64,000 nt of DNA from Candidatus Omnitrophota bacterium (GTDB lineage: Bacteria > Omnitrophota > Gorgyraeia > Gygaellales > Profunditerraquicolaceae). Every line of letters begins with the position of its first letter. Within the stretch, counting starts at the first letter, position 1. The stretch is taken from assembly GCA_041650835.1 (NCBI GenBank), contig JBAZKL010000002.1:338472-402471 (forward strand), read 5' to 3'. Below are positions 49,455 to 64,000 of this stretch, piece by piece. A program made the translations under genes and the position numbers. The notes under the pieces were generated by a model. It did no database searches. It was not told the origin of the DNA and was given only the letters and a program-made list of their open reading frames with translations.

Positions 49455-49620
49455 TTAAGACTTGTTGTCTCAGTAAAGTATAAAGATTAAAGACTAAATA
49501 ACAAAGGAAATTAAAAGGTTAAATAATAAATTTTAAAATTACCTGCCGGCAAGCAGGAACCTTTAATCTTTTAACTTTAATCTTCCTTTGTTATTTATCC
49601 TTTAGACTTTAGACTTAACT
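49455..49620. repeat. AT-rich palindromic intergenic repeat, copy 3
   Basis: See copy 2. Central hairpin cctgc-cggca-agcagg. Lies between the stop of the ligase gene and the start of the DUF134 gene. Confidence 0.5.
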
Positions 49621-52318
49621 TAATCAACCTCTGCCGCAAAGCCTCCGCGACAGCATCATAATCATCGCTTTTGAGCGCTCCCTGGCTTACTAATTCAGTA
49701 TAACTCAGCGGCTTTCCAATCGTAGCTCTTATCGCATGAAAACGGGGTATTTTTGTGTGCCGCGACCAGGCCTGGAATGTGCCTTCAATATAAACTGGTA
49801 CCAGAGGAATATTGAGCTCCTTAGCCAGGATCCCGATACCTTTTTTAAACTTGATCACCTCCCCTGCGGGATTGCGCTGCCCTTCAGGAAAGATACAAAC
49901 TATTTTCTTTTGAGCCAATAAATAAGAACAGATACGCATTGCCTCAACCATGTCCAGAGTGACATCGATCGGGATCAACCTGGCCATCTTAATTGAATCC
50001 CTGATAAAAGGCTGCAAAAAGATCCGCTTTAACCCTACAAAATATGTCTTAAGCAATATATGAAACGGCAATACCGCGGACATAACAAACCCATCCAAAT
50101 AACTGGAATGGTTCGCAAAGATTATATACGGCCCGCTTGCCGGCAGGTTCTTTTTGCCTTTAATGGATAAAAGGAACAATGCCCTCAAAACGCAGCGAAT
50201 TATGGTTATAACGAGTAAACCCGCGATCTTATCAATAAAATACGGCTTAAGCCTTACCATACTCAAAGTTTTAGGATGCGGCCGCTCAATCAGCATTTCC
50301 GACCATAACAATTCATCCCGATGAATATATTTTACATCTTGAGGGATAAAAGGCTCTAGTTTTAGCAATAGATCTCTAATAGTATGGGCAAAAAAGAATT
50401 CCGACTGTATGGACTCGGAAGCCTGAATATTCAAGAACCTGAAGAGTTCCAGAAGTAATTCGATCCTGCCTAAAGAATCAAGCCCCAGGTCCAACTCCAA
50501 ATGATCATCCAAATTGACCTTACGATTAAGCCGCTTTGATATCAACGCGAGTATTTTTCCGGAGATCTCCGAAGTAAAGGCGCCGGCGTCTTCACTGACG
50601 CCCCCCCTCTTCTCATTCTGAAAAACACTGCTTCCCTCTTGAACATACTTTGCCTCTATCTTATGGCGCATGATCTTGCCTAATGCGGTCCGCGGAAGCT
50701 TTTCTTTACTAATAATGAAGCCGGTAACACGCTTATAATTGCTTATTTGATGTGATAAATTATCCAATTCCCAGCGTATTTTCTCTTCAATATTGGCCAC
50801 TGCCCGGGAATTAAAATAATCCTCGTTAGGGACGATCACTGCCATAAGCTGCTTTGCCTCGCCGATAAAGCCCACCCGTGAAGCGACAAAAATACATATT
50901 TCTTTGATATAGGGGCTTAAAAGGTAGTGCCGTTCGATCTCTTCAGGGTTTATCTTCTTGCCGGAGCTTAAAACAATGATCTCATCTTTCCTGCCTTTGA
51001 TATAAAGATATCCGGATTTGTCAAAGTACCCCAGGTCTTCTGTCAGAAACCATCCATCTTTAAGCACCCGGGCGTTTTCCTGAGGCAACTGGTAATACCC
51101 CAACATCACATTCTCTCCCCGGATCGCGACTTTACCGATCCCCTGTTCATCCGGATCCAATATCTTTACCTGGACTCCGGGGATCGGTTTTCCAACAGTT
51201 CCGATCTTAGGCTTGAGCGGAGGATTGAACGTGACGACAGGAGACGTTTCGGTCAAGCCATAACCTTCCAAGATGGTGAATCCCCACTTAAAGAAATCGC
51301 GCATTATCGTTGTTTCGATCTTGGCACCCCCGGTAGTCATAAAACGCAATTTACTCCCAAAGACGGCATGCATTCTATGCAACAGGTATTTACTTAAATT
51401 CAACCCCGTTATTCTTCTCAGGGCCCACAATACCCAAATTAAAACCTGTATGCCTGAACGAAGCAGCACAGGGATCTTCTTAAACCTTTGCTTTATCGCT
51501 TTATGAAAGATCGAGAAAAATTGCGGCACCCCGACTAAAATACTCACCTTCGTCTGTACCATACAATCCAGTAAATCATCGGAATTCAAACTCGCCGGAT
51601 AACTGATCTGCGCGCCTAAAAGAAGCGGCACTAAACAAGTAACCATACATGAATAGGTATGATGAAGCGGCAGGAATGAGATCAAACAATCATTTTTGGT
51701 CACGAGCTTCAGTCTGCGGATCGAATCTATATTCGCTAAGAGATTAACCTGGGAAAGCATGACCGCCTTAGGCTGAGCCGTTGTCCCCGAAGTATAAAAC
51801 ATAGCCGCAACGGCTTCAAGAGGCCTAATGAGGGGTGCTTCCTGCAAACTTTTTGAGGCATGAGTAAGCTGTTCCTGAAAGGCGAGCGAATCAATAAGCA
51901 GTATTTCGACGCTTTTTAAGCCGTCCAGAAACGCGGTGTTTTGAGCGTAGGCCTTCTCCGCGCAAAGAATTATTTTTGACGAAGAATGTATTACTAACTG
52001 AGTAATATCAGGAGCCGGCAGGCGGACATCGATAGGCACGGCAACCGCGCCCGCGAATTGCACTGCCAGAAATGATACCGGCCATTCCACCTGGTTACCG
52101 ACAAGAATAGAGATCCTGTCGGATTTCGCTACCCCCCGCCGGACCAGTAAATTACCCATCGTGAGCGCTTTCTGATAGAGCTCAAGATAAGATATTTCAG
52201 AATATTCTTTATTATTTTTATGGAAAACGGCTGTTTTGGAAGGAGACGCTTTGGCTACTTGAGTGAATTCCTCGAATATACTGAGGCGATTTTGAGCCAT
52301 ATTTTTATATTGAAGCAA
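49595..52318 (-). CDS. tri-domain acyl-AMP ligase (AMP-binding) - acyl carrier (PP-binding) - PlsC-type acyltransferase
   Basis: AMP-binding motifs (FYTSGTTAQPKAV; YGLTETS; TEDLGYFD…GRKDEIIV). ACP-like LDDHLELDLGLDSLGRIELL (DSL). C-terminal FANHSSYLDGF (HX4D) and FPEG acyltransferase motifs. 907 aa. Confidence 0.8.
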   Translation of the reverse strand: MLQYKNMAQNRLSIFEEFTQVAKASPSKTAVFHKNNKEYSEISYLELYQKALTMGNLLVRRGVAKSDRISILVGNQVEWPVSFLAVQFAGAVAVPIDVRLPAPDITQLVIHSSSKIILCAEKAYAQNTAFLDGLKSVEILLIDSLAFQEQLTHASKSLQEAPLIRPLEAVAAMFYTSGTTAQPKAVMLSQVNLLANIDSIRRLKLVTKNDCLISFLPLHHTYSCMVTCLVPLLLGAQISYPASLNSDDLLDCMVQTKVSILVGVPQFFSIFHKAIKQRFKKIPVLLRSGIQVLIWVLWALRRITGLNLSKYLLHRMHAVFGSKLRFMTTGGAKIETTIMRDFFKWGFTILEGYGLTETSPVVTFNPPLKPKIGTVGKPIPGVQVKILDPDEQGIGKVAIRGENVMLGYYQLPQENARVLKDGWFLTEDLGYFDKSGYLYIKGRKDEIIVLSSGKKINPEEIERHYLLSPYIKEICIFVASRVGFIGEAKQLMAVIVPNEDYFNSRAVANIEEKIRWELDNLSHQISNYKRVTGFIISKEKLPRTALGKIMRHKIEAKYVQEGSSVFQNEKRGGVSEDAGAFTSEISGKILALISKRLNRKVNLDDHLELDLGLDSLGRIELLLELFRFLNIQASESIQSEFFFAHTIRDLLLKLEPFIPQDVKYIHRDELLWSEMLIERPHPKTLSMVRLKPYFIDKIAGLLVITIIRCVLRALFLLSIKGKKNLPASGPYIIFANHSSYLDGFVMSAVLPFHILLKTYFVGLKRIFLQPFIRDSIKMARLIPIDVTLDMVEAMRICSYLLAQKKIVCIFPEGQRNPAGEVIKFKKGIGILAKELNIPLVPVYIEGTFQAWSRHTKIPRFHAIRATIGKPLSYTELVSQGALKSDDYDAVAEALRQRLIKLSLKSKG

Positions 52319-53039
52319 GAAATTTTGGATAAAAACCGGTTTCTAACCCATCGAGAAAAAACTTAGTGAAGAATTGCGGATATTTCTTATAGAACTCATG
52401 CTCGATCTCTTCAATACAACCGACATACGGGGTCACCATGCCGTAATAATCAATTTCATGGCCGATAGGCTTAAAAACAAACCCATTCAAATCCAACAAC
52501 TTCCATAATGATTTCTCCATAAGCGCGTACCAATGGGTCAAGCCCCGGCGCTTACTCTCATGATATAGCTCTCGATACATGCCAAACGTCATGGTCCTGA
52601 TCCGGCGAAAAGGGTTATTAGAATTCCCCAAGAGGGCTTTTTCATCAAATTCAGGAGTATAATACAAACCGTCATCCTTGCGGCGCCGGTAATCTTTACT
52701 GATAACAAGACGCGAGATCTCAGCGATCTTATTACGGGGCACGCTTGTTTTATCAAATTGCAACCCGCTGCCGCAGCGCTCTTCGATCGGAAAACCTTCA
52801 GAAGAATCAAGGATAAGCCGCATAGTCCCGATCACTTCAAAATTATCCTCCACGACAAAATGAAGCGCGTACTGGTCATATTTGTCCTGTTCACGGTCAT
52901 CAGGGTATTCTTCTTCTTTAATAAAATGGCACTCTTCACAATACACCTGAAAACGCAAACGGTAAACCTGGTCCATTAAAACCGGTTCTTCAACGAACTT
53001 AAAGGTAAATGAGCTATGGCCTATAATTTCTTTATGCAC
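52305..53039 (-). CDS. FeeM-like N-acyl amino acid synthase (GNAT-related, PEP-CTERM/exosortase-associated type)
   Basis: …YRLRFQVYCEECHFI…GTMRLIL… pattern of the N-acyl amino acid synthase family; overlaps the ligase gene by 14 nt. Confidence 0.65.
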   Translation of the reverse strand: MHKEIIGHSSFTFKFVEEPVLMDQVYRLRFQVYCEECHFIKEEEYPDDREQDKYDQYALHFVVEDNFEVIGTMRLILDSSEGFPIEERCGSGLQFDKTSVPRNKIAEISRLVISKDYRRRKDDGLYYTPEFDEKALLGNSNNPFRRIRTMTFGMYRELYHESKRRGLTHWYALMEKSLWKLLDLNGFVFKPIGHEIDYYGMVTPYVGCIEEIEHEFYKKYPQFFTKFFLDGLETGFYPKFLASI

Positions 53040-53340: not shown

Positions 53341-53388
53341 ACTCCCCCAAAAGCGGCAATTTGGCATATTTTATGCTATACTTATTAA

Positions 53389-54732
53389 ATGGAATTAAGA
53401 CAGAAATTTGAATTTAGGCGGGTTTTAGCCCCTGAAATGCGGCAATCGTTAAATATTTTAACGCTGCATTTACTTGACTTAAACCAAGTCGTAGAAGAAG
53501 AACTTCTTACAAACCCTGTTTTAGAGGAATTCTCGCCAAAAGAGGAGCTTCCCTCCCCCTTTTCCGCGGAAGATCTCGCGAAATTAAACTCTCATTCTAC
53601 TTTACCCGGTAATAACAGTCAGGCTCAAGATAATGAGCCCCACACCTCCCTCCTGATCAATAAAGTATCGCTGCAGGATATTTTATTGCGGCAGCTGGGC
53701 ATGTTTACCGATTCAGACGAAGATCTAAAGATTGGACAAGAAATTATCGGCAATATAGACGAAAACGGCTATTTACAAGCCTCACTTGAACAAATGGCTG
53801 TTCAATTGCAAGTTTCAGAGGCGGACCTCGACAAAGTGCTTTCGTTAATACATCAATTTGAGCCGGCCGGAGTAGGAGCTCGAAACATTTCTGAATGCCT
53901 GCTCATACAATTAAAATTAGCCAATGAGCTGGACCCGCTCACTAAATCAATATGCCTGCAGCATCTTGACGATGTCGCCAAGAAGAATTTTAACCATATC
54001 TCAAAGAAATTAAAGGAACCCCAGGAAAAAATAGAGCTATCAATTAAAAAGATCTTAAAATTAAACCCGAAACCCGGCCGGAATTATTCCCTGGATGAGG
54101 CCCACAGGATCGTGCCCGATATCATTATCGAAGAAAAAGGCGATGGATTCGGAATAATTATCAATCATGAATATGTCCCGCGGCTTACCGTCAGTAAACT
54201 ATACAAAGACCTGCTTAAAAAAGAAAATCTCGACCTTAAAACAAAGGAATTTATCACCAACAAACTAAGGAAAGCCCTTGAATTGATCAAAGCTATTGAA
54301 AAAAGGCAAAGCACATTACGCAGGGTAGTTACTACTATAACCGAGATCCAAGGTGAAGCGATACGGGAAGACCTCTCTCAGATCAAACCGCTAACCTTTA
54401 AGGAAATTGCGGAAAAGCTTGAATTGCATGAATCAACCGTTTGCCGGGTAGTAATGAATAAATACGCGAAAACTCCCTGCGGGGTTATCGCGCTCAAGAA
54501 TTTCTTTTCAAGCCACATCCATCATAAAAACGGCGAATCTATCTCTTCAACCGTAGTTAAAAGCCGCATTAAAGAATTAATCGACAAAGAAAACAAAAAA
54601 CAACCGTTAAGCGACCAAGATATAGTAAAGATCCTCTCTAGTGAAGATAACTTAAACCTCGCCAGGCGTACCGTGGCAAAATACCGCGAAGAGCTGAAGA
54701 TCCTTTCCTCTCCATTCAGAAAAGAACGCTAA
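53389..54732 (+). CDS. rpoN: RNA polymerase sigma-54 factor
   Basis: Region I (LAPEMRQSLNILTL), core-binding region, C-terminal RpoN box (ARRTVAKYRE) and HTH. Confidence 0.9.
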   Translation: MELRQKFEFRRVLAPEMRQSLNILTLHLLDLNQVVEEELLTNPVLEEFSPKEELPSPFSAEDLAKLNSHSTLPGNNSQAQDNEPHTSLLINKVSLQDILLRQLGMFTDSDEDLKIGQEIIGNIDENGYLQASLEQMAVQLQVSEADLDKVLSLIHQFEPAGVGARNISECLLIQLKLANELDPLTKSICLQHLDDVAKKNFNHISKKLKEPQEKIELSIKKILKLNPKPGRNYSLDEAHRIVPDIIIEEKGDGFGIIINHEYVPRLTVSKLYKDLLKKENLDLKTKEFITNKLRKALELIKAIEKRQSTLRRVVTTITEIQGEAIREDLSQIKPLTFKEIAEKLELHESTVCRVVMNKYAKTPCGVIALKNFFSSHIHHKNGESISSTVVKSRIKELIDKENKKQPLSDQDIVKILSSEDNLNLARRTVAKYREELKILSSPFRKER

Positions 54733-54826: not shown

Positions 54827-55813
54827 CTACGAATGCAACGCCACGCTTGCCAGATCAACGATCCTATTGATCAAATTCATGCTGTTGAGATTGAATTTGA
54901 CCGATGAACTCGCCAAAGTCCCCAGGTTAATAACTCCCTGCATCTCACTTTTGATCTTGATCGGAATGATCATCGATGAACTGATATAGGGACGGTGGAG
55001 GTAGCGCTTTACTCTATTATCTTTCAGATTATCATCGATCAAAAGAGAGGCTTTCTCTTTTAACGCGATGCCGGAAACCCCCTCTTCTAACCCGATATTA
55101 GTAGTTCTCACAACCTCATCAGAAAGCCCTTTTGAAGCGCGGATAGTAAGTTTATTCTTACCTTCATCGAGAAACATTACCGACCCGATATCCGCGCCGC
55201 TGATCTGAAAGGCGGCATCAAGTAAAACCTCTAATATCCGGTTAAGCTTCAATACATCGACTGAAATCGCTTCTTTAGTCTTAAACGTCGACTGATACGC
55301 CAGTTTAAGGATATATTCATAAATATCCCTGATGAATTCTATCAAGGACTGCGCCCAATTAAAAGAAACAACCTTTATTTCCAATAAAGCATTCCATAAA
55401 TCATCCAGGTCTAAACCGAGATCGTCAGCGGCAGAGGCGTATTGCTCTTTTGTTTTACGCCTTACTAAAATAACCGGCCCCATGACCAAATACGCGAACA
55501 CCTTATTATCCACCTTAAGCGGTGCAATGCAATTATGCATGCCAGCGCAGGTGACAAAATTAAGATTTCTGTCCACAACGCCTTTGCCTCCGAGAAATGT
55601 CGGTAAGCACCTGCCGCAAACCCGGTTTTTCATAGACTGGTCATTCAAGAGCTCCCTGCAGAGACGGGGTTCGCCGCTGGGAGCGGTCAGTGAGCTTCCT
55701 TTGGGATCGACAATACGCAGCCCCAACTCAGTAATTGCGGAAAAACTATCCTGGATATTCTGCCATTTCTTAAGGTCGATGATATTTCTTATCTCTAATT
55801 CATTCGTATTCAT
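54827..55813 (-). CDS. PocR-like sensory domain + GAF domain protein (no output domain)
   Basis: N-terminal Cys-rich PocR-like region (…CRELL…CGRCL…CAGMHNCIAP), C-terminal GAF (…GSVMFLDEGKNKLTIRASKGL…EEGVSGIAL…). Confidence 0.5.
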   Translation of the reverse strand: MNTNELEIRNIIDLKKWQNIQDSFSAITELGLRIVDPKGSSLTAPSGEPRLCRELLNDQSMKNRVCGRCLPTFLGGKGVVDRNLNFVTCAGMHNCIAPLKVDNKVFAYLVMGPVILVRRKTKEQYASAADDLGLDLDDLWNALLEIKVVSFNWAQSLIEFIRDIYEYILKLAYQSTFKTKEAISVDVLKLNRILEVLLDAAFQISGADIGSVMFLDEGKNKLTIRASKGLSDEVVRTTNIGLEEGVSGIALKEKASLLIDDNLKDNRVKRYLHRPYISSSMIIPIKIKSEMQGVINLGTLASSSVKFNLNSMNLINRIVDLASVALHS

Positions 55814-55819
55814 ATGCAG

Positions 55820-57220
55820 TTATTTCTTTAAGAGGCCGTATTTACGCATCTTTTTATATAAAGTCGTCCTATTGATCCCGAGCGCCGAAGCCGCATCATT
55901 ACGGCTCCAATTCACCGTTTCAAGGGCTTTTAATATTAAGTCCTTTTCAGGTGATTTCAAAGCTTCCCTTAATTTTAAATAGTTTTCTTCAGAAGTCAAC
56001 TGATTTGTATTCCCGAGCTTATGCAAATATTCAGGTAAATCCACAGGCGTGATCACCGGCCCCTGGGATAAAATGATCGCCCGCTCTATGACATTTTCTA
56101 ACTCCCTGACATTCCCGGGCCATTGATAACTTTTCAATATTGCCAACGCCTCATCAGATAATCCCTCGATCTTTTTATTGATATGTTCAGAATGTTTCTC
56201 GATAAAGTCTTCAGCCAAAAGCGGAATATCATTTTTGCGCTCCCGCAAAGGAGGAAGGTCAATTGCAATAATATTTAAACGATAATAGAGGTCCATGCGA
56301 AACGTACCTTTAGCGATCAAATCCTGGAGGTTCTGATTTGTCGCGGCAATAACGCGGACATCGACCTTGAGGGTCTTAGTATCGCCGACACGCTCAAACT
56401 CACCCTCTTGCAGGACGCGTAATAGTTTTACCTGTAACGCCGGTGAAAAAGCGTCAATTTCGTCTAAGAATATCGTCCCTCCATCGGCTAATTCAAAACG
56501 GCCGACCCTGTCCCGGATAGCCCCGGTAAACGCTCCTTTGACATGGCCGAAAAGCTCGCCTTCCAGCAACGTTTCGGTTAAAGCCCCGCAGCTTACTTCA
56601 ACGAATGGCTTCTCCCTCTCCACCGCGTTGTATTTATGTATCGCGTGCGCGATTATACGCTTTCCGGTCCCGCTTTCACCCTGTAGCAAGACAGTCGCCC
56701 TGGTCTTGGCAATAGCTTCGACCAACGAGTAAATTTTCTGCATTTTCTCGTCTTTACCGACCACATTATGAAAACGGCTCCTTTGAGTAGCGGATAATTG
56801 CTCCTTGAGTTTGATGTTTTCTTCCTCAAGCTGGCGCTCTTTCAACAGCCGCTCGATAACAAGCTTAATTTCGCTGTCGACGATAGGTTTCGTAATATAA
56901 TCATACGCCCCTTCTTTTACCGCTTCGACCGCGTTTTCAATGCTTCCATAACCGGTGATCATAATGACAGGCGTATCCTGATGGTCTTTCTTTATCTGTT
57001 TTAATAACTGAGTCCCGTCCATCTCGGGCATTTTAATATCGCTTATCACAAGATCAACCGTATAACTCTTGAGGAAATCGATGGCTTCTTTGCCGTTATT
57101 CGCGGAACTAACGGTATAGCCCGAAAGCGTCAAAAGCTCAGTAAGAGACCCCCGAACTAAAGGCTCATCGTCAACAACAAGGATATGCCCGTTTTTATTG
57201 GAATCTGTATTATGAAGCAT
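55820..57220 (-). CDS. sigma-54-dependent response regulator (NtrC family: REC + AAA+ + Fis-HTH)
   Basis: REC (ILVVDDE…DIKMP), sigma-54 activator (GESGTGK…GAFTGA…ESELFGH-type GAFTG motif), C-terminal HTH (AASALGINRTTLYKKM). Confidence 0.9.
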   Translation of the reverse strand: MLHNTDSNKNGHILVVDDEPLVRGSLTELLTLSGYTVSSANNGKEAIDFLKSYTVDLVISDIKMPEMDGTQLLKQIKKDHQDTPVIMITGYGSIENAVEAVKEGAYDYITKPIVDSEIKLVIERLLKERQLEEENIKLKEQLSATQRSRFHNVVGKDEKMQKIYSLVEAIAKTRATVLLQGESGTGKRIIAHAIHKYNAVEREKPFVEVSCGALTETLLEGELFGHVKGAFTGAIRDRVGRFELADGGTIFLDEIDAFSPALQVKLLRVLQEGEFERVGDTKTLKVDVRVIAATNQNLQDLIAKGTFRMDLYYRLNIIAIDLPPLRERKNDIPLLAEDFIEKHSEHINKKIEGLSDEALAILKSYQWPGNVRELENVIERAIILSQGPVITPVDLPEYLHKLGNTNQLTSEENYLKLREALKSPEKDLILKALETVNWSRNDAASALGINRTTLYKKMRKYGLLKK

Positions 57221-58418
57221 TTTTTAAGAATGATTTCGGGATTAAAATAGTAAAAGAACTCCCCTTTTTAACAACGCTCTGCACCTTAATTGATCCGCCG
57301 TATTTATTAACGATCTCCTGACTGATCGCCAAGCCTAATCCCGTGCCTTTATCCATGCTTTTTGTAGTAAAAAACGGCTCAAAGATCCGCTTTAAGACCT
57401 CTTCCGGTATGCCGAAACCTGTGTCCGCGATGGTAATAGCGACAAACGATTCCTTAAGCGCGGTCTCTATCTCTAAAACACCCCCCTTAGGCATAGCATC
57501 CAAGGCATTCTCAATAATATTAATCACCACATGGGACAAGCCAAAATCCATGATTTTCGGAAGCTCAACATTATAATTCTTCGTTATCTTAATATTACCT
57601 TCCAGGGCCTCCCCAAAGACGTCTAAGGATTCATCAATCAAAGAATGAATATCAATGTAGTGTTTATGGTGCGCAGTACTTAAATTTATCTGGCGCGAGA
57701 ACTCCAAGAGCGAACGAGTGATCTTAGCAATACGGTTTAATCCTTTAGTGATCTCCAAAAGATACTCCCTCATTGCCGAATTATCCTCCATCTGGTCGAG
57801 CAGGATATTAGCGTATCGAATAACCCCGTCGAGGGGATTATTGATCTGATGAACGACACCCGCGGCAAGCTTTCCTACCGAAGCGTATTTTTCTAATAAC
57901 ACCTTCTGCTTGTCTAAAGCCTCATTTTCCTGCTTTAACCCGGTATAACTATTCAAACTTTCCAGAGCCAGGCAGGCGTATTTAGAGATCGTGACCGCGA
58001 GATTAAGGTCCTCTTCCGAGAAATGCTCACCCGTTGATTTATCCGCTAAATTGATCAATCCCAAAAGCCGCTCAGAGGTGAAAATAGGTATAGACATGAA
58101 CGAATTAGTCTGGTAATGCGTATATCCATTCTGCTTAAAACGGGAATCAGAATTAATGTCTTTGACAAGAACAGGGGTTTTTATATCAGCGACTTTGCCG
58201 GAGATCCCTTCCCCCAGCCTTTGGCGCAATTCTTTCAAATGAGTGTTTTCAGGGACATAAAATGAATTAAGGACAAGCTCTTTTTGCTCGCAATCAAACA
58301 AAAACAAAGACCCACGATCCGCGTGCACCACCGCCATTATCTCTTTGAGCGTCCTGCTTAAAAAATGCTTCAGGATCCCGCCGGAATCCTTATTTTCTAA
58401 TATCCTGAGTTCTGTCAT
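57210..58418 (-). CDS. soluble GAF-sensor histidine kinase
   Basis: GAF, then HisKA ([12 protein letters not shown]), then HATPase (ENALDAM…DTGFGIPEE…GTGLGLAI). No TM segments. Confidence 0.85.
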
Positions 58419-59263
58419 GGCTTATTCAACTCCTTAAGTAAAAGCGCAGATACTTTACTATACCTGCTTTTGGGATACTCCTTGTTCAATCGAGTGAGTA
58501 TCTCTTGTGCCTTTCCTTTATCTTTTAACTGCTTGGCATATATAATGGCCATTTCAAACATCGCTCCGTCCATTTTCGCTTTACCATTAAACTTTTCAAT
58601 AACTGTTTCGAAAGTTTTAGCGGCCATCTGCCAATCTTTTATGGCTATATAGCATTGCGATACTAATAAATAAGCGTTAAAGGCTAACAAAGAATTCGGA
58701 TACGCCTCAATAAGCGTTTTATATTGCCCTATGGCATCCTGATAGGCGGCGAGCATCTTTTCAGGTTGATATTTGACCTTATAATACTGGGCAATAAATA
58801 TCGGGATATCAAGGGCCTTGACCGTAGTCGGATATTCCCGGGTGATCTTTTTATACTGCTCTAAAGCAGCGCTCCATTTATCCTGCAACTGATAGGTATT
58901 ACCGATGAGGAAAAGAGCTTCGGAACAAATAACCGGCGATTTTTTATTTGCCTGCAGTATCTTCTGCAGCTGTTTACGGGCTGAATCGTATTCTTCTTTT
59001 ACAATATATAAACGGGCAGTATTAAATGAGGCTTCAATTGCCAGCGGATTCTTGGAATTCTCAACAATAAACGCATCTGTTCTCTTCACTACCTGCTCTA
59101 ATTCATGGGGAGGCGAAGCAGCAGGATTTTTGAAAATCTTTTCCCCCAGTTTCTTGATCTTCCAGTATTTTTTCTCGATCGAATACTGATCATTTGAAGC
59201 ACACCCTAAAAATGCTAAAACCATTAAAAGAGAAACGATTTTTAAAATGGAGGCTTTTGTCAT
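58415..59263 (-). CDS. TPR-repeat lipoprotein
   Basis: Lipobox LAFLGC-AS, multiple TPR-like helices; co-operonic (4-nt overlaps) with the HK and the membrane protein. Confidence 0.65.
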   Translation of the reverse strand: MTKASILKIVSLLMVLAFLGCASNDQYSIEKKYWKIKKLGEKIFKNPAASPPHELEQVVKRTDAFIVENSKNPLAIEASFNTARLYIVKEEYDSARKQLQKILQANKKSPVICSEALFLIGNTYQLQDKWSAALEQYKKITREYPTTVKALDIPIFIAQYYKVKYQPEKMLAAYQDAIGQYKTLIEAYPNSLLAFNAYLLVSQCYIAIKDWQMAAKTFETVIEKFNGKAKMDGAMFEMAIIYAKQLKDKGKAQEILTRLNKEYPKSRYSKVSALLLKELNKP

Positions 59264-60183
59264 TTTTGTATTTCTTCAGCAATACCCAAGGTTTTATTAT
59301 CTTGTAATAGGCTATCTTTTTTCATAAGGTAATACAATGCGGTAGAAACAGTAATCGACACATCGACAAACAAAGAAGTGATCAGTACATTTAGGAAAGC
59401 AATAAACAACACTAATTCCGGGTAAAACTTATTTATGATTAAAAGCGTATTATACTGCAAAATAATAATTGGCACATACGCCAACATAGGAATACCGACT
59501 AACACAATAGTTGGAAAGAAAGACTTAAAGAATAAACCGCATGATTTCAGAAGCGCCTTAAAAGGATTAACTTTTTCAATCACCAAAACTGGAATAACGT
59601 AAGCAAAACAAGCCTGAATTAAAACTGAGATCAAAAAACTAATACTAGATAAGAGAGGGCCAAACCACATAGCCGGTTTTAAGAATAAAAGTGTTTTGTG
59701 GCCGGTAAGAAAATATTTCCTTAAACCCACTGAGGGTAACTGCAAAGCTCCCTGGAATATTATAGTAATGATCAGTACTACAAGAAAAAAAGCGGCATAT
59801 TTCCTAAAGGACGCTTTAAAAACATTGATCATCCTTACCGCTCTCTTCTCATAAAGATTAGAAATTACTTGAACCGCCACAGCGCTTAAATATGATCCCG
59901 CTAAAATCGATAAAACAGTACGAGTAATACCTGCTAACTTCGGAATTAAAACAAAATTCATTGGATAATGCAAGAACCTTTCTCCAAAGAAAGCTTTGAT
60001 AGGCGGACCTAAAACAATAACAAACGGCATACGGGGAGAAATGTAGATAAAAATCAACGCGAGTAATTCAAGAATCGTAAAGATAGCAAAGGGGATAAAT
60101 AGTAACTTATTGTGTTTCAGGAGACTAAAAGTATTATTGTATACTTTTTTTAATGATGGGTATTTAGTGGTCTGAGGATTCAT
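59260..60183 (-). CDS. polytopic membrane protein of unknown function (≥7 TM)
   Basis: Hydrophobicity pattern only. No exosortase-type CSG/Arg signature recognised. Confidence 0.45.
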   Translation of the reverse strand: MNPQTTKYPSLKKVYNNTFSLLKHNKLLFIPFAIFTILELLALIFIYISPRMPFVIVLGPPIKAFFGERFLHYPMNFVLIPKLAGITRTVLSILAGSYLSAVAVQVISNLYEKRAVRMINVFKASFRKYAAFFLVVLIITIIFQGALQLPSVGLRKYFLTGHKTLLFLKPAMWFGPLLSSISFLISVLIQACFAYVIPVLVIEKVNPFKALLKSCGLFFKSFFPTIVLVGIPMLAYVPIIILQYNTLLIINKFYPELVLFIAFLNVLITSLFVDVSITVSTALYYLMKKDSLLQDNKTLGIAEEIQK

Positions 60184-60404: not shown

Positions 60405-60995
60405 CTAGGACTTTCTTTTTAAACCAAATAATCCCAAAATACCCATCCCTAATAACATCATACTTGTGGGTTCCGGAATAGCAGTTGTCACCACAAATTT
60501 TGCTCCAGTATTTGAATAATGGCAGTCAGGGTCAATTCCAAACCCATAATTACCATTGGATGAATATTGAGTCAACAAATCAAGCTGTTCGGGCGTGAAA
60601 GTGTATACCCAATTTTCCGTAGCAACATCGGTATCAGTATACGATGTTAACAATGTTCCCTGGCCACTAAAATAATCTTCCATCGTTTCAGGATGGAAAT
60701 AAGCGGCATCATCCCAAATCTGAACAGTTCCCGCAGACATATCATTCAATAAATGTATATACATAGCGTTATCTGCAAAAGGCTCGTTATTAATATTATC
60801 AATACTCAAATACGCGCCTGTGATCGTATCTCCTTCCATAAGAGACCAATCGATACCCCATGTATATGCATAATAATGATCGAGATTCCACAGATTCTCA
60901 GGAGACGGCTGAAACATATATGTAGACGCAAACGCTGAAGTAGAGCCCACGACACCTAAGACGATCACAAAAAGGATAAAAAGGTACTTCTTCAT
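60405..60995 (-). CDS. PEP-CTERM sorting-signal secreted protein
   Basis: Signal peptide; C-terminal IPEPTSMMLLGMGILGLFGLKRKS (PEP + TM + basic tail). Confidence 0.8.
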   Translation of the reverse strand: MKKYLFILFVIVLGVVGSTSAFASTYMFQPSPENLWNLDHYYAYTWGIDWSLMEGDTITGAYLSIDNINNEPFADNAMYIHLLNDMSAGTVQIWDDAAYFHPETMEDYFSGQGTLLTSYTDTDVATENWVYTFTPEQLDLLTQYSSNGNYGFGIDPDCHYSNTGAKFVVTTAIPEPTSMMLLGMGILGLFGLKRKS

Positions 60996-61087: not shown

Positions 61088-62152
61088 CTATAGAACTTTC
61101 TTCTTTCTCAGTTTCTTAGCTGCCGCTAATGTTAATCCACCGACACCAAATAGTAACATTGAGACGGGTTCCGGAACAACCGTTGTAGGATTCAGCAGAA
61201 AAGCGGTAGCTACACCATTATAAGTTCCAGTTCCAATCATCTGCCCCTTTTCATTGATCGCATTAGCAAGCTGCAATGACCATCCGCTTGCAGGATCTAT
61301 TAACCCAGACAAATCCCTCACCCCATTAATGCTATCCCATAAGAATGCTTGACCATTAGCACCACCTACTACCCAACCGGAATTATTAATACTAGTAGCG
61401 CTGCTAGAACTACCCGCTAATGCGTCTAAGAAAAGAGTTGAACCGGCATCAATGTCCCAAATCGTAGGCACATAGCTACCCGAAACCATTGTTTGCCCAA
61501 CCACAACTTTACTATCATTAATATCCGAAGCGGAGCTTTGAGCTGTTGAAATACTCTGCATTGCACCATCCCAAAAAAACGCATGGTTGTAACCGTCGGT
61601 TCCAGCGGAAGAACCAACAACTTGTCCTGCGCTATTTATGTTGCTTGCACCACTTGATGTCCCCCCCAGTGATCCCAAAATTTGCGTACTACCGCTATTA
61701 TCAACGATAAAACCTCTAACATAACCTATCGGATAACGCATATAAGCGTCTCCAACAATTTCGCCACTGTCGTTTATACTATAAGCATTACTCCAAAATG
61801 ATGATCCAACTCCTTTGTCTTGCATACCATCACTATTGCTCCAACAAAAGGCGTTAGATAACCCACTGGATCCAGCGATTTGCGATGTACCAACTATTTG
61901 ACCTAAGTTATTAATAGCTAACGCTCTCGCCCAAGAACCGCCTAAAGTGCCGATATCTTGCACCTGCCCAGTAATATCCCATATAACAGCACGTTCAGAA
62001 CCGCCTATGTTACGGCTTCCAACAATCTGATCCATCTCATTAATACCATACGCATTCCCGGACCCAAGATTAACAACATCATAATCATAAGCAAGCGCGG
62101 ATTGAATTAAACAAGAAAAAAACAGCACGATTAAAACAAATACTCTCTTCAT
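61088..62152 (-). CDS. HAF-repeat PEP-CTERM protein
   Basis: Repeats of the HAF extracellular-repeat type (AYSINDSGEIVG, SNINSAGQVVGSS, SATSINNSGWVVG, ANAINEKGQMIG); C-terminal VPEPVSMLLFGVGGLTLAAAKKLRKKK. Confidence 0.8.
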   Translation of the reverse strand: MKRVFVLIVLFFSCLIQSALAYDYDVVNLGSGNAYGINEMDQIVGSRNIGGSERAVIWDITGQVQDIGTLGGSWARALAINNLGQIVGTSQIAGSSGLSNAFCWSNSDGMQDKGVGSSFWSNAYSINDSGEIVGDAYMRYPIGYVRGFIVDNSGSTQILGSLGGTSSGASNINSAGQVVGSSAGTDGYNHAFFWDGAMQSISTAQSSASDINDSKVVVGQTMVSGSYVPTIWDIDAGSTLFLDALAGSSSSATSINNSGWVVGGANGQAFLWDSINGVRDLSGLIDPASGWSLQLANAINEKGQMIGTGTYNGVATAFLLNPTTVVPEPVSMLLFGVGGLTLAAAKKLRKKKVL

Positions 62153-62303
62153 CTTTTTTGCCCCCTAAATTTTTTGATACCTGTCAACACCCCAGCCCCG
62201 AGCAAAAAAAGAATCGAGCTCACAGGCTCTGGAGCAACGGTTCCGGTCACACTCAGGTAAGGCCTATAGCTAGAACTAGCTTCATCCGAAGAAAAAATCC
62301 GAC

Positions 62304-63032
62304 TTATTTCTTCTTCATACCCCCTAACAATCCCAAAAGGCCAATACCTAACAGTGATAAAGATGCTGGTTCAGGAACCGGGCTCGCTTGGCCCTTTAAA
62401 TAATCGTTGGCGCAAGTCGCTCCGCCATAGAAGACATTAAAAGAACCATCGTAATTATTAAGGAAAGAAGTATCCACAACAGCTTCTACCATATAACGCG
62501 GTCCATTACCGAGAAGTTGGTTCCAAACAACATTGCTTTGCAAATCCAAGAAGCCACCGTTAGCAATAGTCACGATTTGATTATCATGATAAACATACCC
62601 TGCTCCGGGATATGGCCAGGAGTGGCCAACCGTAGGATCATAAACATTAGACAAATTCCAGGTGGACACACTATAGAGCCCGCCAGAAGTAAGGCCATTA
62701 TGCCCCGTAAAAGCTACTCCATACTCATAGATCCCATCCTTATTCAGATCCAAAGCCAGATCAGCCGGTAAAGTATTCCAACCGCCGGTTTGTTCTCCGG
62801 TAGAAGGATAATTGGTAAAAAGATCAAAAATCAAATTTGAGCCAACTTGACTGATATTCATACCGTAAAGTTCATACATATTATCGCCTATTCGGTCAAA
62901 TGACTGAGCATCGCGCCCGCTGTTCCAATAAAAAGCATCGCCAACCGGATCATTAATGGTATAGGCGAAAGCGGTCCCTCCGAGCAACAATATACTTACA
63001 AAACTCAATACTACTAATGTTAATTTTCTCAC
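62304..63032 (-). CDS. PEP-CTERM sorting-signal secreted protein
   Basis: Signal peptide; C-terminal PVPEPASLSLLGIGLLGLLGGMKKK. Confidence 0.8.
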   Translation of the reverse strand: MRKLTLVVLSFVSILLLGGTAFAYTINDPVGDAFYWNSGRDAQSFDRIGDNMYELYGMNISQVGSNLIFDLFTNYPSTGEQTGGWNTLPADLALDLNKDGIYEYGVAFTGHNGLTSGGLYSVSTWNLSNVYDPTVGHSWPYPGAGYVYHDNQIVTIANGGFLDLQSNVVWNQLLGNGPRYMVEAVVDTSFLNNYDGSFNVFYGGATCANDYLKGQASPVPEPASLSLLGIGLLGLLGGMKKK

Positions 63033-63046
63033 TATGATTTCCCTTT

Positions 63047-63919
63047 CTAATTAGCGCCTTTTCCTGTAAAAACAACAAAAACAGTCTGGGCTAATATCCT
63101 CATTTCAACCCACAAACACATCTTTTTAATGTATAAAAGATCATATTTTACTTTTTTCCTGACATCAGCTATTGTTTCATCGTACCTATTATATATCTGA
63201 GAAAGGCCGGTTATACCAGGCTTGACAATAAGCCTTTTTTCATAGTCGCAAATAAGTTTCTTAAAATCCCTGACCATTTCAGGCCTTTCCGGCCGAGGGC
63301 CGACAATGCTCATTTCACCCTTTAAAACATTAAATAACTGAGGGATTTCATCAATTCTGGTCTTTCTTAGGAATTTTCCAATAACGGTAATACGAGGATC
63401 ATTCCTTTTTGCCCAAACTGCACCCGTCCCTTTTTCCGCATCAACCCTCATAGTTCTCAACTTATATATTTTAAATGTCTTGCCACCTCTGCCTACCCGA
63501 TTTTGCTGATAAACTATTGATCCTCGAGAATCAATTTTGATAAAAATTGAAGCAAGAATGAGCAATGGCGCGCCAATAATCAAACCAATTATAGCTAATA
63601 CTATATCTAAAACTCTTTTGATCTTCCGGAAGCTTCTGCGCACAAAACTAACAATAAGACCACCGATCCCACCCAAAACAAACAAAAACGAGCTAGGTTC
63701 AGGAGCTTGAGTCTTTTTTACTGGAACTTGATTGAACTCAATCCCCATCTGATTATTTTGTTCATAGGATATCGAATTACCCAAGAAAGTAATCGCAAAG
63801 ATATCCTTTCCCCTTAAAACAGGCTCCAAAACAAAAAGCGTCATTATTAATAATATTCCGATACTAATCCTTTTCATAGTTTGTTTAAATTTAAGTTTTA
63901 TTATATTTTTTTTTCCCAT
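63047..63919 (-). CDS. polyprenyl-phosphate glycosyl-phosphotransferase ('bacterial sugar transferase', priming) with an N-terminal PEP-CTERM-like extension
   Basis: Catalytic region KRVLDIVLAIIGLIIGAPLLILASIFIKIDSRGSIVYQQNRVGRGGKTFKIYKLRTM…GITGLSQ is typical of WbaP-C/PglC-type transferases. The preceding 95 aa read like a signal peptide followed by QAPEPSSFLFVLGGIGGLIVSFVRR. Confidence 0.75.
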   Translation of the reverse strand: MGKKNIIKLKFKQTMKRISIGILLIMTLFVLEPVLRGKDIFAITFLGNSISYEQNNQMGIEFNQVPVKKTQAPEPSSFLFVLGGIGGLIVSFVRRSFRKIKRVLDIVLAIIGLIIGAPLLILASIFIKIDSRGSIVYQQNRVGRGGKTFKIYKLRTMRVDAEKGTGAVWAKRNDPRITVIGKFLRKTRIDEIPQLFNVLKGEMSIVGPRPERPEMVRDFKKLICDYEKRLIVKPGITGLSQIYNRYDETIADVRKKVKYDLLYIKKMCLWVEMRILAQTVFVVFTGKGAN

Positions 63920-64000
63920 TTCTTCTCTTTAACTCACTTTCTATACATTAATTTATTTTCTTTAATATCTTTCATATTATTATAAGCATTAACCATGCCA

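Follow-up and report, generated by a model that had tools for sequence, protein, structure and literature searches.

Exosortases take their name from exopolysaccharide loci, with which they consistently occur. The sorting signal of true PEP-CTERM proteins lies at the end of the polypeptide: 87% of the regions are followed by fewer than 10 further residues, and regions distant from the C-terminus may be non-functional (Haft et al. 2006, PMC1569441). The same study placed PF02397 genes, which encode phosphoglycosyl transferases (PGTs), near EpsH (PMC1569441). In two families of large WbaP-like PGTs, TIGR03013 (EpsB_2) and TIGR03025, the N-terminal domain consists of several helices and no PEP motif has been described; the NCBIfam name of TIGR03013 already connects it with exosortase systems. 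Small monotopic PGTs of the PglC type (PF02397; PDB 8e37/8g1n) start a few residues before a Lys-Arg dyad and have no other membrane segment, and the determinants of the PglC re-entrant helix are the Lys7-Arg8 dyad and the Ser23-Pro24 break (Entova et al. 2018, PMC6133551). In the archaeosortase A/PGF-CTERM and T9SS PorU/A-LPS systems, sorting takes off a C-terminal signal and attaches the protein to a lipid or a lipid-linked glycan (10.1101/2023.06.07.544157; PMC7468200). These two systems offer models for a glycan-priming enzyme that travels with a sortase-like enzyme. To our knowledge, no enzyme of the acceptor pathway in either of them carries the sorting signal itself.

The gene described here lies in a window of 64,000 nt (the whole stretch of DNA that was analysed) and joins a PEP-CTERM tag and a PGT in one polypeptide. 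It is an intact, unbroken ORF with an ATG start at positions 63047..63919 of the minus strand and encodes a PEP-CTERM-tagged small phosphoglycosyl transferase of 290 aa, hereafter PEP-PGT. A basic N-region with a hydrophobic segment is followed by a disordered spacer of ~40 aa, a PEP-CTERM-type segment, and a PglC-like PGT. The original prediction had read the gene as a signal-peptide-like part and a PEP-CTERM motif joined in frame to a complete PglC/WbaP-C-type PGT, and Pfam, alignment, and PDB matches all bore out this structure. The identical database entry comes from a Candidatus Omnitrophota MAG and is named only "sugar transferase"; every other database copy encountered carries that name or a similar one.

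More than 120 homologues of about 290 aa that cover the N-terminus share the same reading frame. A genome scan with a hand-built degenerate DNA pattern found the same fusion at 104 further loci, nearly all labelled Omnitrophota, and in 104/104 the motif lay within one ORF of 254-339 aa with an identical architecture. The pattern fixes A-P-E-P, G+11, [FY], KR, D, and P, which makes these counts lower bounds; the fixed positions were excluded as evidence within the scan set, and an unselected alignment of 40 sequences (A1) was used for them. One copy (L044) is only 134 aa long, and some database fragments diverge past the junction; these look truncated or chimeric. An assembly or sequencing error, a recent stop-codon loss or frameshift, or an internal start of the PGT was also considered as the origin of the fusion. 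No support was found for any of these, their sole basis being the rule by which PEP-CTERM occurs at the C-terminus (PMC1569441). The frame is open through the junction, at catalytic-domain identities of 54-96%, in the >120 database homologues and in all 104 independent loci, to which many studies and assemblers contributed. Few stretches are as well conserved as the junction RRSFxKFKRxxD, and no conserved Met, Val, or Leu start lies between the tag and K101. Orthologues split into two genes with a stop after the basic tail had been named as the outcome that would overturn the original prediction, and the comparison gave the opposite. The comparative data ruled out an error, a stop loss, or an internal start, leaving an artefact with a negligible probability, and to judge from these alignments the fusion in PEP-PGT is old and has become fixed. 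A search of 1.84 billion representatives with a profile of the N-terminal module returned only 33 matches, all of which had the same architecture or were fragments of it, together with one genuine 105-aa mini PEP-CTERM protein (P0144). The module was found on no other enzyme among these 33 matches, the profile being short and blind to divergent versions.

Residues 101-284 (63068..63619, minus strand) match the Bac_transf family (PF02397) at 223.4 bits (E 2e-66, cut-off 27), and the family was matched by 40/40 aligned homologues. The re-entrant membrane helix of the PGT was assigned to residues 101-130 (63530..63619, minus strand; AF2 helix 97-130), where K101 and R102 of the dyad, D105, and P118 of the A117-P118 helix break are invariant in the 40 sequences; the spacing from K101 to P118 is 17 residues, the same as between K7 and P24 of PglC. 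D190, E191, P208, R209, and P210 are also invariant in A1, and the GPRPERP motif is conserved. We take D190-E191 and P208-R209-P210 to be the catalytic Asp-Glu dyad and the PRP motif known from structural work on PglC. Among PDB entries, PEP-PGT matched WbaP (8t53) at 1e-36 and PglC (8e37) at 3e-31, the latter aligned from query residue 100 through to the end. The best reading of these features is a small PglC-type priming PGT, which would transfer sugar-1-phosphate from a UDP-sugar to undecaprenyl phosphate. It thus shares with PglC a complete catalytic domain, the Lys-Arg dyad, the x-Pro break at PglC spacing, the Asp-Glu dyad, and PRP, but unlike PglC it has about 100 residues ahead of the dyad. 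The large PGTs belong to the same catalytic superfamily, and their profiles cover only part of it: TIGR03013 gave 254 bits against a cut-off of 393.35, with only profile positions 245-442 of 443 aligned, and TIGR03025 gave 294.9 bits against 295.55. Because TIGR03025 aligns over positions 255-444 of 445 only, PEP-PGT is without the large N-terminal domain. Homology of its extension to that domain was rejected, as no alignment with WbaP, TIGR03025, or TIGR03013 reaches further towards the N-terminus than residue 92. In PEP-PGT the proposed link to the exosortase lies within the polypeptide and would be physical, beyond a genomic one.

The AF2 model has helices at residues 3-35, 75-95, and 97-130, and pLDDT falls below 50 at residues 38-74, the disordered spacer between the first two. 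The mean net charge across the family is +4.0 in the n-region, about 0 (-0.2) in the spacer, and +3.0 after the PEP-CTERM helix, an in-out-in pattern in which hydrophobic helices at 18-31 and 76-93 come before the re-entrant helix. Charge pattern and modelled helices agree, making the predicted topology self-consistent, and in the model the full-length protein has a bitopic plus re-entrant arrangement around a PglC-like core and is not monotopic. Residues 1-31 (63827..63919, minus strand; AF2 helix 3-35) comprise a strongly basic n-region (residues 1-17, net +7) and a hydrophobic h-region (18-31), a putative Sec signal peptide or signal anchor. By a simple heuristic, an [AVST]xA site follows the h-region in 89/101 family members, and canonical AXA sites (e.g., TAWA↓T) occur in most other PEP-PGT subfamilies. 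In the subfamily of the window protein, the first hydrophobic segment is followed by LEPxLRxKxxFA, not a textbook AXA site, and the candidate signal-peptidase site of the window protein, FA↓IT (residues 41-44), lies 11 residues past the h-region. The N-terminus originally read as a signal peptide is basic and hydrophobic, and in this subfamily, which lacks a textbook cleavage site, its first hydrophobic segment may be a signal anchor. Residues 32-71 (63707..63826, minus strand) make up a spacer predicted to be periplasmic, in which alignment A1 has the conserved motif LEPxLRxKxxFAxT(F/Y)F ahead of a variable stretch, disordered by pLDDT. Spacer length stays at 20-45 aa across all lineages while the sequence drifts, and a short motif, TVSFVKPxD or VTYFDxPK, is conserved at the mature N-terminus.

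Residues 72-100 (APEPSSFLFVLGGIGGLIVSFVRRSFRKI; 63620..63706, minus strand) carry the internal PEP-CTERM-type sorting signal, assigned from PF07589, a PSSM, and the AF2 helix at 75-95. The signal is tripartite: APEP (P73-E74-P75 at 63695-63703), the Gly-rich TM helix SSFLFVLGGIGGLIVSFV, and the basic cluster RRSFRKI. Between APEP and RRSFRK there are 18 residues, each of them hydrophobic or Gly. Profile scores for the window protein were borderline, with PF07589 at 18.7 bits on the whole protein and 21.0 bits on residues 1-100 alone (gathering score 20.7), and TIGR02595 at 11.9 bits against a cut-off of 16. Across the relatives, the PEP-CTERM match was far beyond chance, with PF07589 matched at E<=0.01 in 26/40 aligned homologues (best 2.3e-5). 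In A1, A72, P73, and P75 are at least 90% conserved, and E74 and G84 are invariant. The segment also carries the PEP-CTERM signature of its lineage, PEP-x-[ST]-[ML]-x-L-[LF]-G-x-G-x-x-G, and the helix shares with 164 true tails the residues [ST] at +4, [ML] at +5, L at +7 (94% vs 99%), and G at +9, +11, and +14. A position matrix built only from these 164 genuine C-terminal tails of neighbouring genes, and restricted to positions +3..+18 with PEP and G11 excluded, gave the PGT segments a mean of +14.1 bits and set them apart from the 17,131 remaining hydrophobic windows of those loci, whose mean was -24.6 (sd 9.5, maximum 7.0). Pairwise identity across the family was 0.08 in the linker, rising to 0.51 in the PEP-TM segment (0.40 once the pattern-fixed positions are left out) and 0.67 in the catalytic domain. 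To judge from these sequences, selection falls on the tag and not on the spacer, because the linker has an identity of 0.08 against 0.51 for the PEP-TM segment and E74 and G84 are invariant in the unselected set. Across the window and about 0.9 Mb of loci, 83 internal PEP-CTERM-like segments were found, all of them in PEP-PGTs, and no other protein in that sequence had one.

Directly upstream of the PGT gene, on the same strand, an exosortase gene and then EpsI were present in 63/68 loci (93%) with at least 2.2 kb of flank, at a median gap of about 300 nt; on the contig of the window the pair is found at L001:8028-9467. The neighbouring exosortase scored 156.8 bits with TIGR02602, above the cut-off of 105.55, and 178.1 bits with TIGR03109 (XrtA), below the cut-off of 208. 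Its Cys-Arg-His residues, C181, R226, and H247, are invariant in 68 cassette sequences. A terminator-like hairpin separates epsI from the PGT gene; a search for an Rfam element in this spacer returned only sub-threshold miRNA-type hairpin matches, and a terminator is the better reading of this hairpin. A sigma-54 type -24/-12 promoter element, TGGCATGGTTAATGCT (63985..64000, minus strand), precedes the ATG by about 66 nt; the window has no other exact match to TGGCAYGNNNNWTGCW (0.04 expected). In 96/103 related loci the PGT gene is preceded by an equivalent element, where shuffles gave 1.35 expected and the reverse complement 0. A looser sigma-54 pattern showed no enrichment across the window (11 matches vs 22.8 expected), and of the sigma-54 tests just the strict pattern and the cross-locus comparison carry weight.

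Three genes for PEP-CTERM proteins follow on the minus strand. The first (62304..63032) begins 14 nt past the PGT stop and encodes 242 aa with a signal peptide ending in TAFA↓Y and the tail VPEPASLSLLGIGLLGLLGGMKKK (PF07589, 26.4 bits). The second (61088..62152) encodes a 354-aa HAF-repeat protein (TIGR02913, 81 bits; TIGR02595, 17.2 bits), and the third (60405..60995) a protein of 196 aa (PF07589, 29.4 bits; TIGR02595, 21.1 bits). Next comes a conserved cassette member without family assignment, a 307-aa polytopic membrane protein with a CysZ/choline-transporter-like fold (59260..60183, minus strand). The regulatory module of the cassette (54827..59263, minus strand), assigned with NCBIfam and Pfam, contains a TPR protein (58415..59263), a GAF histidine kinase (57210..58418), a sigma-54-dependent response regulator (55820..57220; TIGR02915 PEP_resp_reg, 421 bits, below the cut-off of 502.6), and a PocR-GAF protein (54827..55813), and its homologues recur in 18-31 related blocks. 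Such PrsK/PrsR/PrsT-like regulators are a further likeness to XrtA/PEP-CTERM systems. Inside the cassette lies rpoN, encoding sigma-54 (53389..54732, plus strand; TIGR02395, 388 bits, above the cut-off of 277). No glycosyltransferase, flippase, or polymerase gene was identified from 49.6 kb of the window to about 10 kb past its edge, which makes the surroundings of PEP-PGT a cassette for protein sorting and not an EPS locus. A functional design coupling recognition or cleavage by exosortase to glycan initiation, one of the two explanations first offered for the fusion, is strongly favoured by its conservation, the exosortase/EpsI synteny (63/68), the shared putative sigma-54 promoter, and the lineage-specific signature.

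PEP-PGT resembles canonical PEP-CTERM proteins (PF07589/TIGR02595), including the three encoded downstream and the PepA-type floc proteins, in its signal-peptide-like N-terminus, low-complexity region, P-E-P on a short Gly-rich helix, basic cluster, exosortase adjacency, and lineage signature. It differs from them in what follows the tag: the basic cluster is not at the extreme C-terminus, since the entire enzyme, 190 residues of predicted cytoplasmic protein, comes after it, compared with 0-10 residues in canonical proteins. Its "passenger" is only about 30 residues, and its K-S-[RH]-A flanks and helix length are also distinct. Relative to substrate tails, the tag has Ala at -1 (tails have Val/Ile), Arg/His at -2, Lys/Arg at -4, and a helix about 2 residues longer; Ala at -1 is fixed by the DNA search pattern, yet at least 90% conserved in the unselected A1. 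Identity between the tag and the tails of its own locus was 0.341 vs 0.329 after permutation, a weak difference that 96/2000 permutations equalled or exceeded, and co-variation with own-locus tails was dropped as support. A tag that does not track the local flavour of tails fits a specialised, perhaps non-substrate, interaction.

These differences could also mean that the segment serves as an anchor only. In an ancestral fusion, the PGT would have gained the segment from the 3' end of a neighbouring PEP-CTERM gene or from a mini gene of this kind, and the segment would now be a plain TM anchor that sets an N-out/C-in topology, like the extra helices of large WbaP-type PGTs, and is not read by the exosortase. 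Stand-alone mini PEP-CTERM proteins of ~100 aa such as P0144 are possible donors, and the large PGTs function with a TM helix directly before the re-entrant helix, WbaP aligning from query residue 92. The conserved flanks before PEP, the longer helix, the lack of co-variation with local tails, and the borderline HMM scores all agree with this explanation as well. However, a plain anchor needs neither an invariant Glu in P-E-P at the periplasmic edge nor the G-x-G-x-x-G face of a sorting signal, and PglC-type enzymes need no extra anchor (PMC6133551). It would also leave the 93% exosortase/EpsI adjacency and the restriction of internal tags to one enzyme unexplained, and we consider it quite unlikely.

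We favour instead, as a reasonably probable reading of the sequence data, that PEP-PGT is a dedicated client of the neighbouring exosortase, that its membrane anchor is a genuine PEP-CTERM-type signal, and that glycan priming is coupled to PEP-CTERM sorting. The basic, hydrophobic N-terminus would carry the first ~70 residues through Sec, with signal peptidase cutting at the AXA site in most subfamilies. The PEP-CTERM helix would then act as a stop-transfer anchor, leaving the PEP motif at the periplasmic face and the RRSFRK cluster, re-entrant helix, and catalytic domain on the cytoplasmic face. An XrtA-like exosortase with Cys-Arg-His intact, together with EpsI, would bind the helix as it does substrate tails, and the enzyme making the first undecaprenyl-diphosphate-sugar would be held at, or licensed by, the sorting machine. 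With the PGT on the same sigma-54 transcript as the PEP-CTERM proteins, a lipid-linked glycan would be begun where and when those proteins are processed, and it could decorate them or serve as their attachment point. Recognition of the tag by the exosortase appears fairly probable. A lipid-linked sugar made on the cytoplasmic face needs a flippase, and none was identified here, which counts against PEP-PGT as a client. The borderline profile scores, the systematic differences from substrate tails, and the caution of Haft et al. (2006) on regions distant from the C-terminus weigh on the same side. A role of the glycan in serving the PEP-CTERM proteins is suggested more tentatively and is somewhat less than probable. 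It is distinctly doubtful, if conceivable, that the exosortase cuts the tag and that the flipped undecaprenyl-diphosphate-linked sugar, moved perhaps by the CysZ-like cassette protein, is the acceptor or modifier for PEP-CTERM proteins.

Should the exosortase recognise the tag, cleavage, with a helix-anchored active PGT as the "leaving group", and docking as a pseudo-substrate appear about equally probable. The searchable literature yielded no biochemical characterisation of PEP-CTERM tag processing. In a stricter form of the cleavage model, the exosortase would cut at PEP as in a substrate, the ~30-aa periplasmic peptide would be passed to an acceptor or set free, and activity or stability would be confined to the PGT that has been cut and stays anchored by its helix, such that glycan priming could not start before a functional exosortase exists. 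All the recognisable substrate elements can be seen in PEP-PGT, namely a putative Sec signal, a low-complexity spacer, PEP, a short Gly-rich helix, and a basic cluster, and the spacer keeps its length despite sequence drift, as expected for substrate-like geometry. The logic would have a precedent in Providencia, where the rhomboid protease AarA activates TatA by removal of an N-terminal extension. However, the extended helix and the conserved residues at -1, -2, and -4, which differ from those of substrates, could equally block cleavage, and the conserved motif at the mature N-terminus fits a role in binding better than a peptide destined for disposal. Moreover, large PGTs are active with an upstream helix, and cleavage is not obviously required. 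Activation by cleavage is thus possible, if on the unlikely side.

PEP-PGT is a novel combination of known parts. An internal PEP-CTERM on a PGT is not described in NCBIfam, Pfam, or the searchable literature, which included the 2024 census of the monotopic PGT superfamily and left most subscription journals outside the search; nor did the literature searched contain a paper on Omnitrophota exosortase or PEP-CTERM systems. Nearly twenty years on, the searchable literature states neither the attachment target of exosortases nor why glycan genes accompany them. The present data suggest that protein sorting and the start of a sugar chain are physically linked: the enzyme predicted to make the first lipid-linked glycan intermediate bears what is probably the exosortase's own recognition tag, and it is encoded between exosortase/EpsI and the substrate genes, under putative sigma-54 control, in more than 100 genomes. 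A genomic correlation thereby becomes a testable protein-protein relationship within a small cassette made up of the exosortase, EpsI, the PGT, a few substrates, a membrane protein, and a two-component/sigma-54 switch. A "C-terminal" sorting signal may be usable internally, ahead of a cytoplasmic domain, and annotation pipelines miss such cases; the predicted topology would also be a new membrane architecture for the monotopic PGT superfamily. If the exosortase cuts the tag, a cytoplasmic enzyme would be the "leaving group" of a sortase-like reaction. If, in addition, the sugar is the acceptor, the cassette of the uncultivated phylum Omnitrophota would be a minimal, self-contained model of the exosortase link between sorting and glycan synthesis.

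The gene at 63047..63919 on the minus strand is an intact ORF of 290 residues, in which a very basic N-region (net charge +7; MGKKNIIKLKFKQTMKR) is followed by a first hydrophobic segment (ISIGILLIMTLFVL), a spacer of ~40 residues without predicted structure, a PEP-CTERM-type segment (QAPEPSSFLFVLGGIGGLIVSFVRRSFRKI) and a complete bacterial sugar transferase domain starting at K101. The original prediction had accurately described a signal-like N-terminus, a PEP-CTERM motif, and a phosphoglycosyl transferase (PGT) in one ORF. Bac_transf covered residues 101-284 with 223 bits, and PF07589 covered residues 72-95, scoring 18.7 bits on the full-length sequence and 21.0 bits on residues 1-100 alone (gathering score, 20.7). 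Since the NCBIfam model TIGR02595 also scored only 11.9 bits against a cut-off of 16, the motif of this single sequence is borderline by HMM; by eye, it is textbook. AlphaFold2 (mean pLDDT 71) placed helices at 3-35, 75-95, and 97-130, with residues 38-74 disordered. Across the family, net charge changes from +4.0 ahead of the first hydrophobic segment to -0.2 in the spacer and +3.0 beyond the PEP helix. This in-out-in pattern predicts that PEP faces the periplasm and that the enzyme is cytoplasmic. An AXA-type Sec signal peptide site is typical of most subfamilies (e.g., ...CVATAWA|TVSFVKP) and was found by a simple heuristic in 89 of 101 family members, at a median distance of 33 residues from PEP. 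In the subfamily of the window's protein, LEPxLRxKxxFA|xT(F/Y)F follows the hydrophobic core in place of this site, which makes signal peptide cleavage less certain, and the first hydrophobic segment may be a signal anchor.

Searching 5.8 billion proteins recovered an identical protein on an 868-kb Candidatus Omnitrophota contig and >120 homologues (~270-316 aa, 56-91% identity), the N-terminal extension being covered in all. Alignment of 40 sequences showed E74 and G84 to be invariant and A72, P73, and P75 to be conserved in 90% or more, and the junction xVRFARKSFxKFKRxMD, with K101, R102, and D105 invariant, contains no stop; PF07589 matched 26 of the 40 at E<=0.01. The same fusion was then sought in one genome for each of 185,579 species, using a degenerate DNA pattern that fixes A-P-E-P / G / [FY] / K-R / D / P at the observed spacing. 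It was present at 104 loci, while ~0.1 matches were expected by chance according to our own estimate. Nearly all of these stretches are labeled Candidatus Omnitrophota or are PVC-group bins named "uncultured Planctomycetales," and a few carry the deposited MAG labels Lysobacterales, Deltaproteobacteria, or Babeliales, labels being taken as given. All 104 loci have one ORF with the same layout (254-339 aa, with the L044 copy listed at 134 aa). An artefact of split genes or stop loss, which had been raised as an explanation, is ruled out by the single open frame in the >120 homologues and 104 loci, among which no orthologue is split in two genes. The catalytic domains of the pattern loci are 54-96% identical to each other, and the fusion is therefore old and fixed. 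This PEP-PGT architecture is thus real, ancient, and widespread, occurring in at least 100 species-level genomes. The truncated L044 ORF could be either a pseudogene or the result of a sequencing error. Two PEP-PGT genes belonging to one subfamily (L041 and L067) lie on the Omnitrophota contig JBAZMA010000001.1, with exosortase/EpsI upstream of one and eight PEP-CTERM genes following the other.

Mean pairwise identity was 0.08 in the spacer, whose length also varies across the family, 0.51 in the PEP-TM segment (0.40 minus pattern-fixed positions), 0.46 in the re-entrant helix, and 0.67 in the catalytic domain; the sorting-signal helix is under purifying selection. We compared it, position by position, with 164 true C-terminal PEP-CTERM tails encoded by neighboring genes in these loci. 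Positions fixed by neither selection agreed between true tails and PGT segments, namely, S/T at +4 (97% and 98%, respectively), M/L at +5 (88% and 73%), L at +7 (99% and 94%), G at +9 (83% and 57%), and G at +14 (80% and 74%). On a log-odds matrix built from the tails (positions +3..+18, leaving out PEP and G11), PGT segments averaged +14.1 bits, whereas 17,131 other hydrophobic windows from the same loci averaged -24.6 (sd 9.5, maximum 7.0), and the median PGT segment outscored every control. All 83 internal PEP-CTERM-like segments, with loci and window scored, lay within these PGTs. Differences were also consistent: the PGT segment has Ala at -1 where true tails have Val/Ile, is set apart by Arg/His at -2 and Lys/Arg at -4, and has a helix ~2 residues longer. 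Tag flavor did not track that of own-locus tails (0.341 versus 0.329, with 96 of 2000 permutations as high). The tag is a distinct, conserved variant of the PEP-CTERM signal, fitting its sequence definition and exosortase co-occurrence but not its defining C-terminal position. PEP-CTERM copies in atypical places might be non-functional (Haft et al. 2006, PMC1569441); in this family, conservation argues against a non-functional internal tag. The main rival, that the segment is now a membrane anchor only, appears unlikely. A 33-aa ORF with a GTG start (62149..62250, minus strand) consists of a PEP-CTERM tail alone (TGTVAPEPVSSILFLLGAGVLTGIKKFRGQKR), without signal peptide or passenger; it sits between two PEP-CTERM genes separated by 151 nt, its stop overlapping the next ATG, and is probably a tail orphaned by recombination or duplication among such genes.

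Alignment to PglC (PDB 8e37) starts at query residue 100, and that to WbaP (PDB) at residue 92. Lys7-Arg8 and Ser23-Pro24 determine the re-entrant helix of PglC (PMC6133551), and their 17-residue spacing is exactly that of K101-R102 / A117-P118. Judged by sequence, the core is PglC-like, within the PF02397 superfamily, and the alignment start and spacing indicate that the extension is an add-on to an already complete small PGT. Unlike the monotopic superfamily of its catalytic core, PEP-PGT as a whole is not monotopic. It falls below the large-PGT models TIGR03025 (294.9 versus 295.55 bits) and TIGR03013 (254 versus 393 bits), aligning to both over the catalytic half only.

Only 81 nt of the window lie upstream of the gene, and the flank was taken from L001, a contig stretch reaching past the window's right edge. 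Directly upstream on the same strand are genes for an exosortase (270 aa) and for EpsI as a separate protein, the exosortase scoring above the generic TIGR02602 cut-off, with XrtA as best subtype (178 bits versus a cut-off of 208). The same order and strand recur in 63 of the 68 loci whose upstream flank extends for 2.2 kb or more (median EpsI-PGT gap of ~300 nt in related loci), and C181, R226, and H247 are kept in the cassette exosortases. PEP-CTERM genes lie immediately 3' of the PGT in most related loci. In the window, the gene is followed by three PEP-CTERM proteins, a 307-aa membrane protein without family, a TPR protein, a GAF histidine kinase, a response regulator that depends on sigma-54 and reaches 421 bits on the PEP-CTERM-box regulator model (less than its cut-off), a PocR-GAF protein, rpoN on the opposite strand, an exosortase-system acyltransferase (TIGR03694), and a protein with AMP-ligase, carrier, and acyltransferase parts; in this stretch, no gene was recognized as encoding a glycosyltransferase, flippase, or polymerase. 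The 104 related loci were analyzed as uncentered 8-kb blocks; the 307-aa protein recurs in 44 of these, and the four genes from TPR to PocR-GAF in 18-31. At 49595..53039 (minus strand), the N-acyl amino acid synthase-like TIGR03694 gene (190.7 bits, above cut-off) overlaps the 907-aa AMP-ligase / carrier-protein / acyltransferase fusion, which suggests that synthesis of an acylated small molecule or lipid accompanies the sorting system. Immediately 5' of the exosortase, in its orientation and just outside the window on the right, a set of genes resembling type II secretion / type IV pilus components (L001:478-8022; two GspC-like PDZ proteins, PilM/N, a secretin, and a GspE/PilB ATPase) is a candidate outer-membrane route for PEP-CTERM proteins. 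Elsewhere in the window, Pfam gave no match at E<=1e-5 for a 1083-aa ORF (14053..17304, minus strand).

A sigma-54 -24/-12 promoter element (TGGCATGGTTAATGCT; 63985-64000, minus strand) lies upstream of the PEP-PGT gene. Its equivalent (GGCAY-N5-xTGC) was found 5' of the PGT in 96 of 103 loci, with 1.35 expected and 0 for the reverse complement, and rpoN and a sigma-54 activator are encoded within the cassette. The epsI-PGT spacer contains a long GC-rich hairpin ending in a T-run within AT-rich surroundings (L001:9560-9663, plus strand), for which Rfam gave sub-threshold miRNA-type hairpin matches only; following epsI, it is terminator-like. Together, element and hairpin point to the PGT as the first gene of a predicted sigma-54 unit continuing into the substrate genes. 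A second sigma-54-like element (TGGCATATTTTATGCT; 53362..53377, plus strand) ends 12 nt before the annotated rpoN start (53389) and could reflect auto-regulation or a mis-called start.

The PGT, a complete priming enzyme, is encoded between the sorting enzyme and its substrates, sharing the substrates' promoter. We infer that the exosortase/EpsI pair probably binds its PEP helix, which would then be either cut by exosortase or only docked. Cutting, by which the enzyme would become a helix-anchored PGT and a ~30-aa peptide would be transferred or released, may be favored by the substrate-like layout of the N-terminus and the maintained spacer length. Docking without cutting may instead be favored by the special residues flanking PEP, the longer helix, and a conserved short motif at the mature N-terminus. 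Most likely, the arrangement serves to begin a lipid-linked glycan where and when PEP-CTERM proteins are processed. This glycan would decorate these proteins, which are Ser/Thr/Asn-rich (PMC1569441), or be their attachment point, by analogy with lipid attachment for archaeosortase A (10.1101/2023.06.07.544157) and A-LPS attachment in T9SS (PMC7468200).

Both parts, a small PGT and a PEP-CTERM signal, are known; their combination appears to be new. NCBIfam and Pfam hold no model describing a PEP-CTERM-tagged PGT, source annotations of the homologues all read "sugar transferase" or similar, and such a protein is not described in the searchable literature, including a 2024 proteome-wide census of monotopic PGTs. 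PEP-PGT provides a compact, testable system for studying how exosortases are linked to glycan synthesis.
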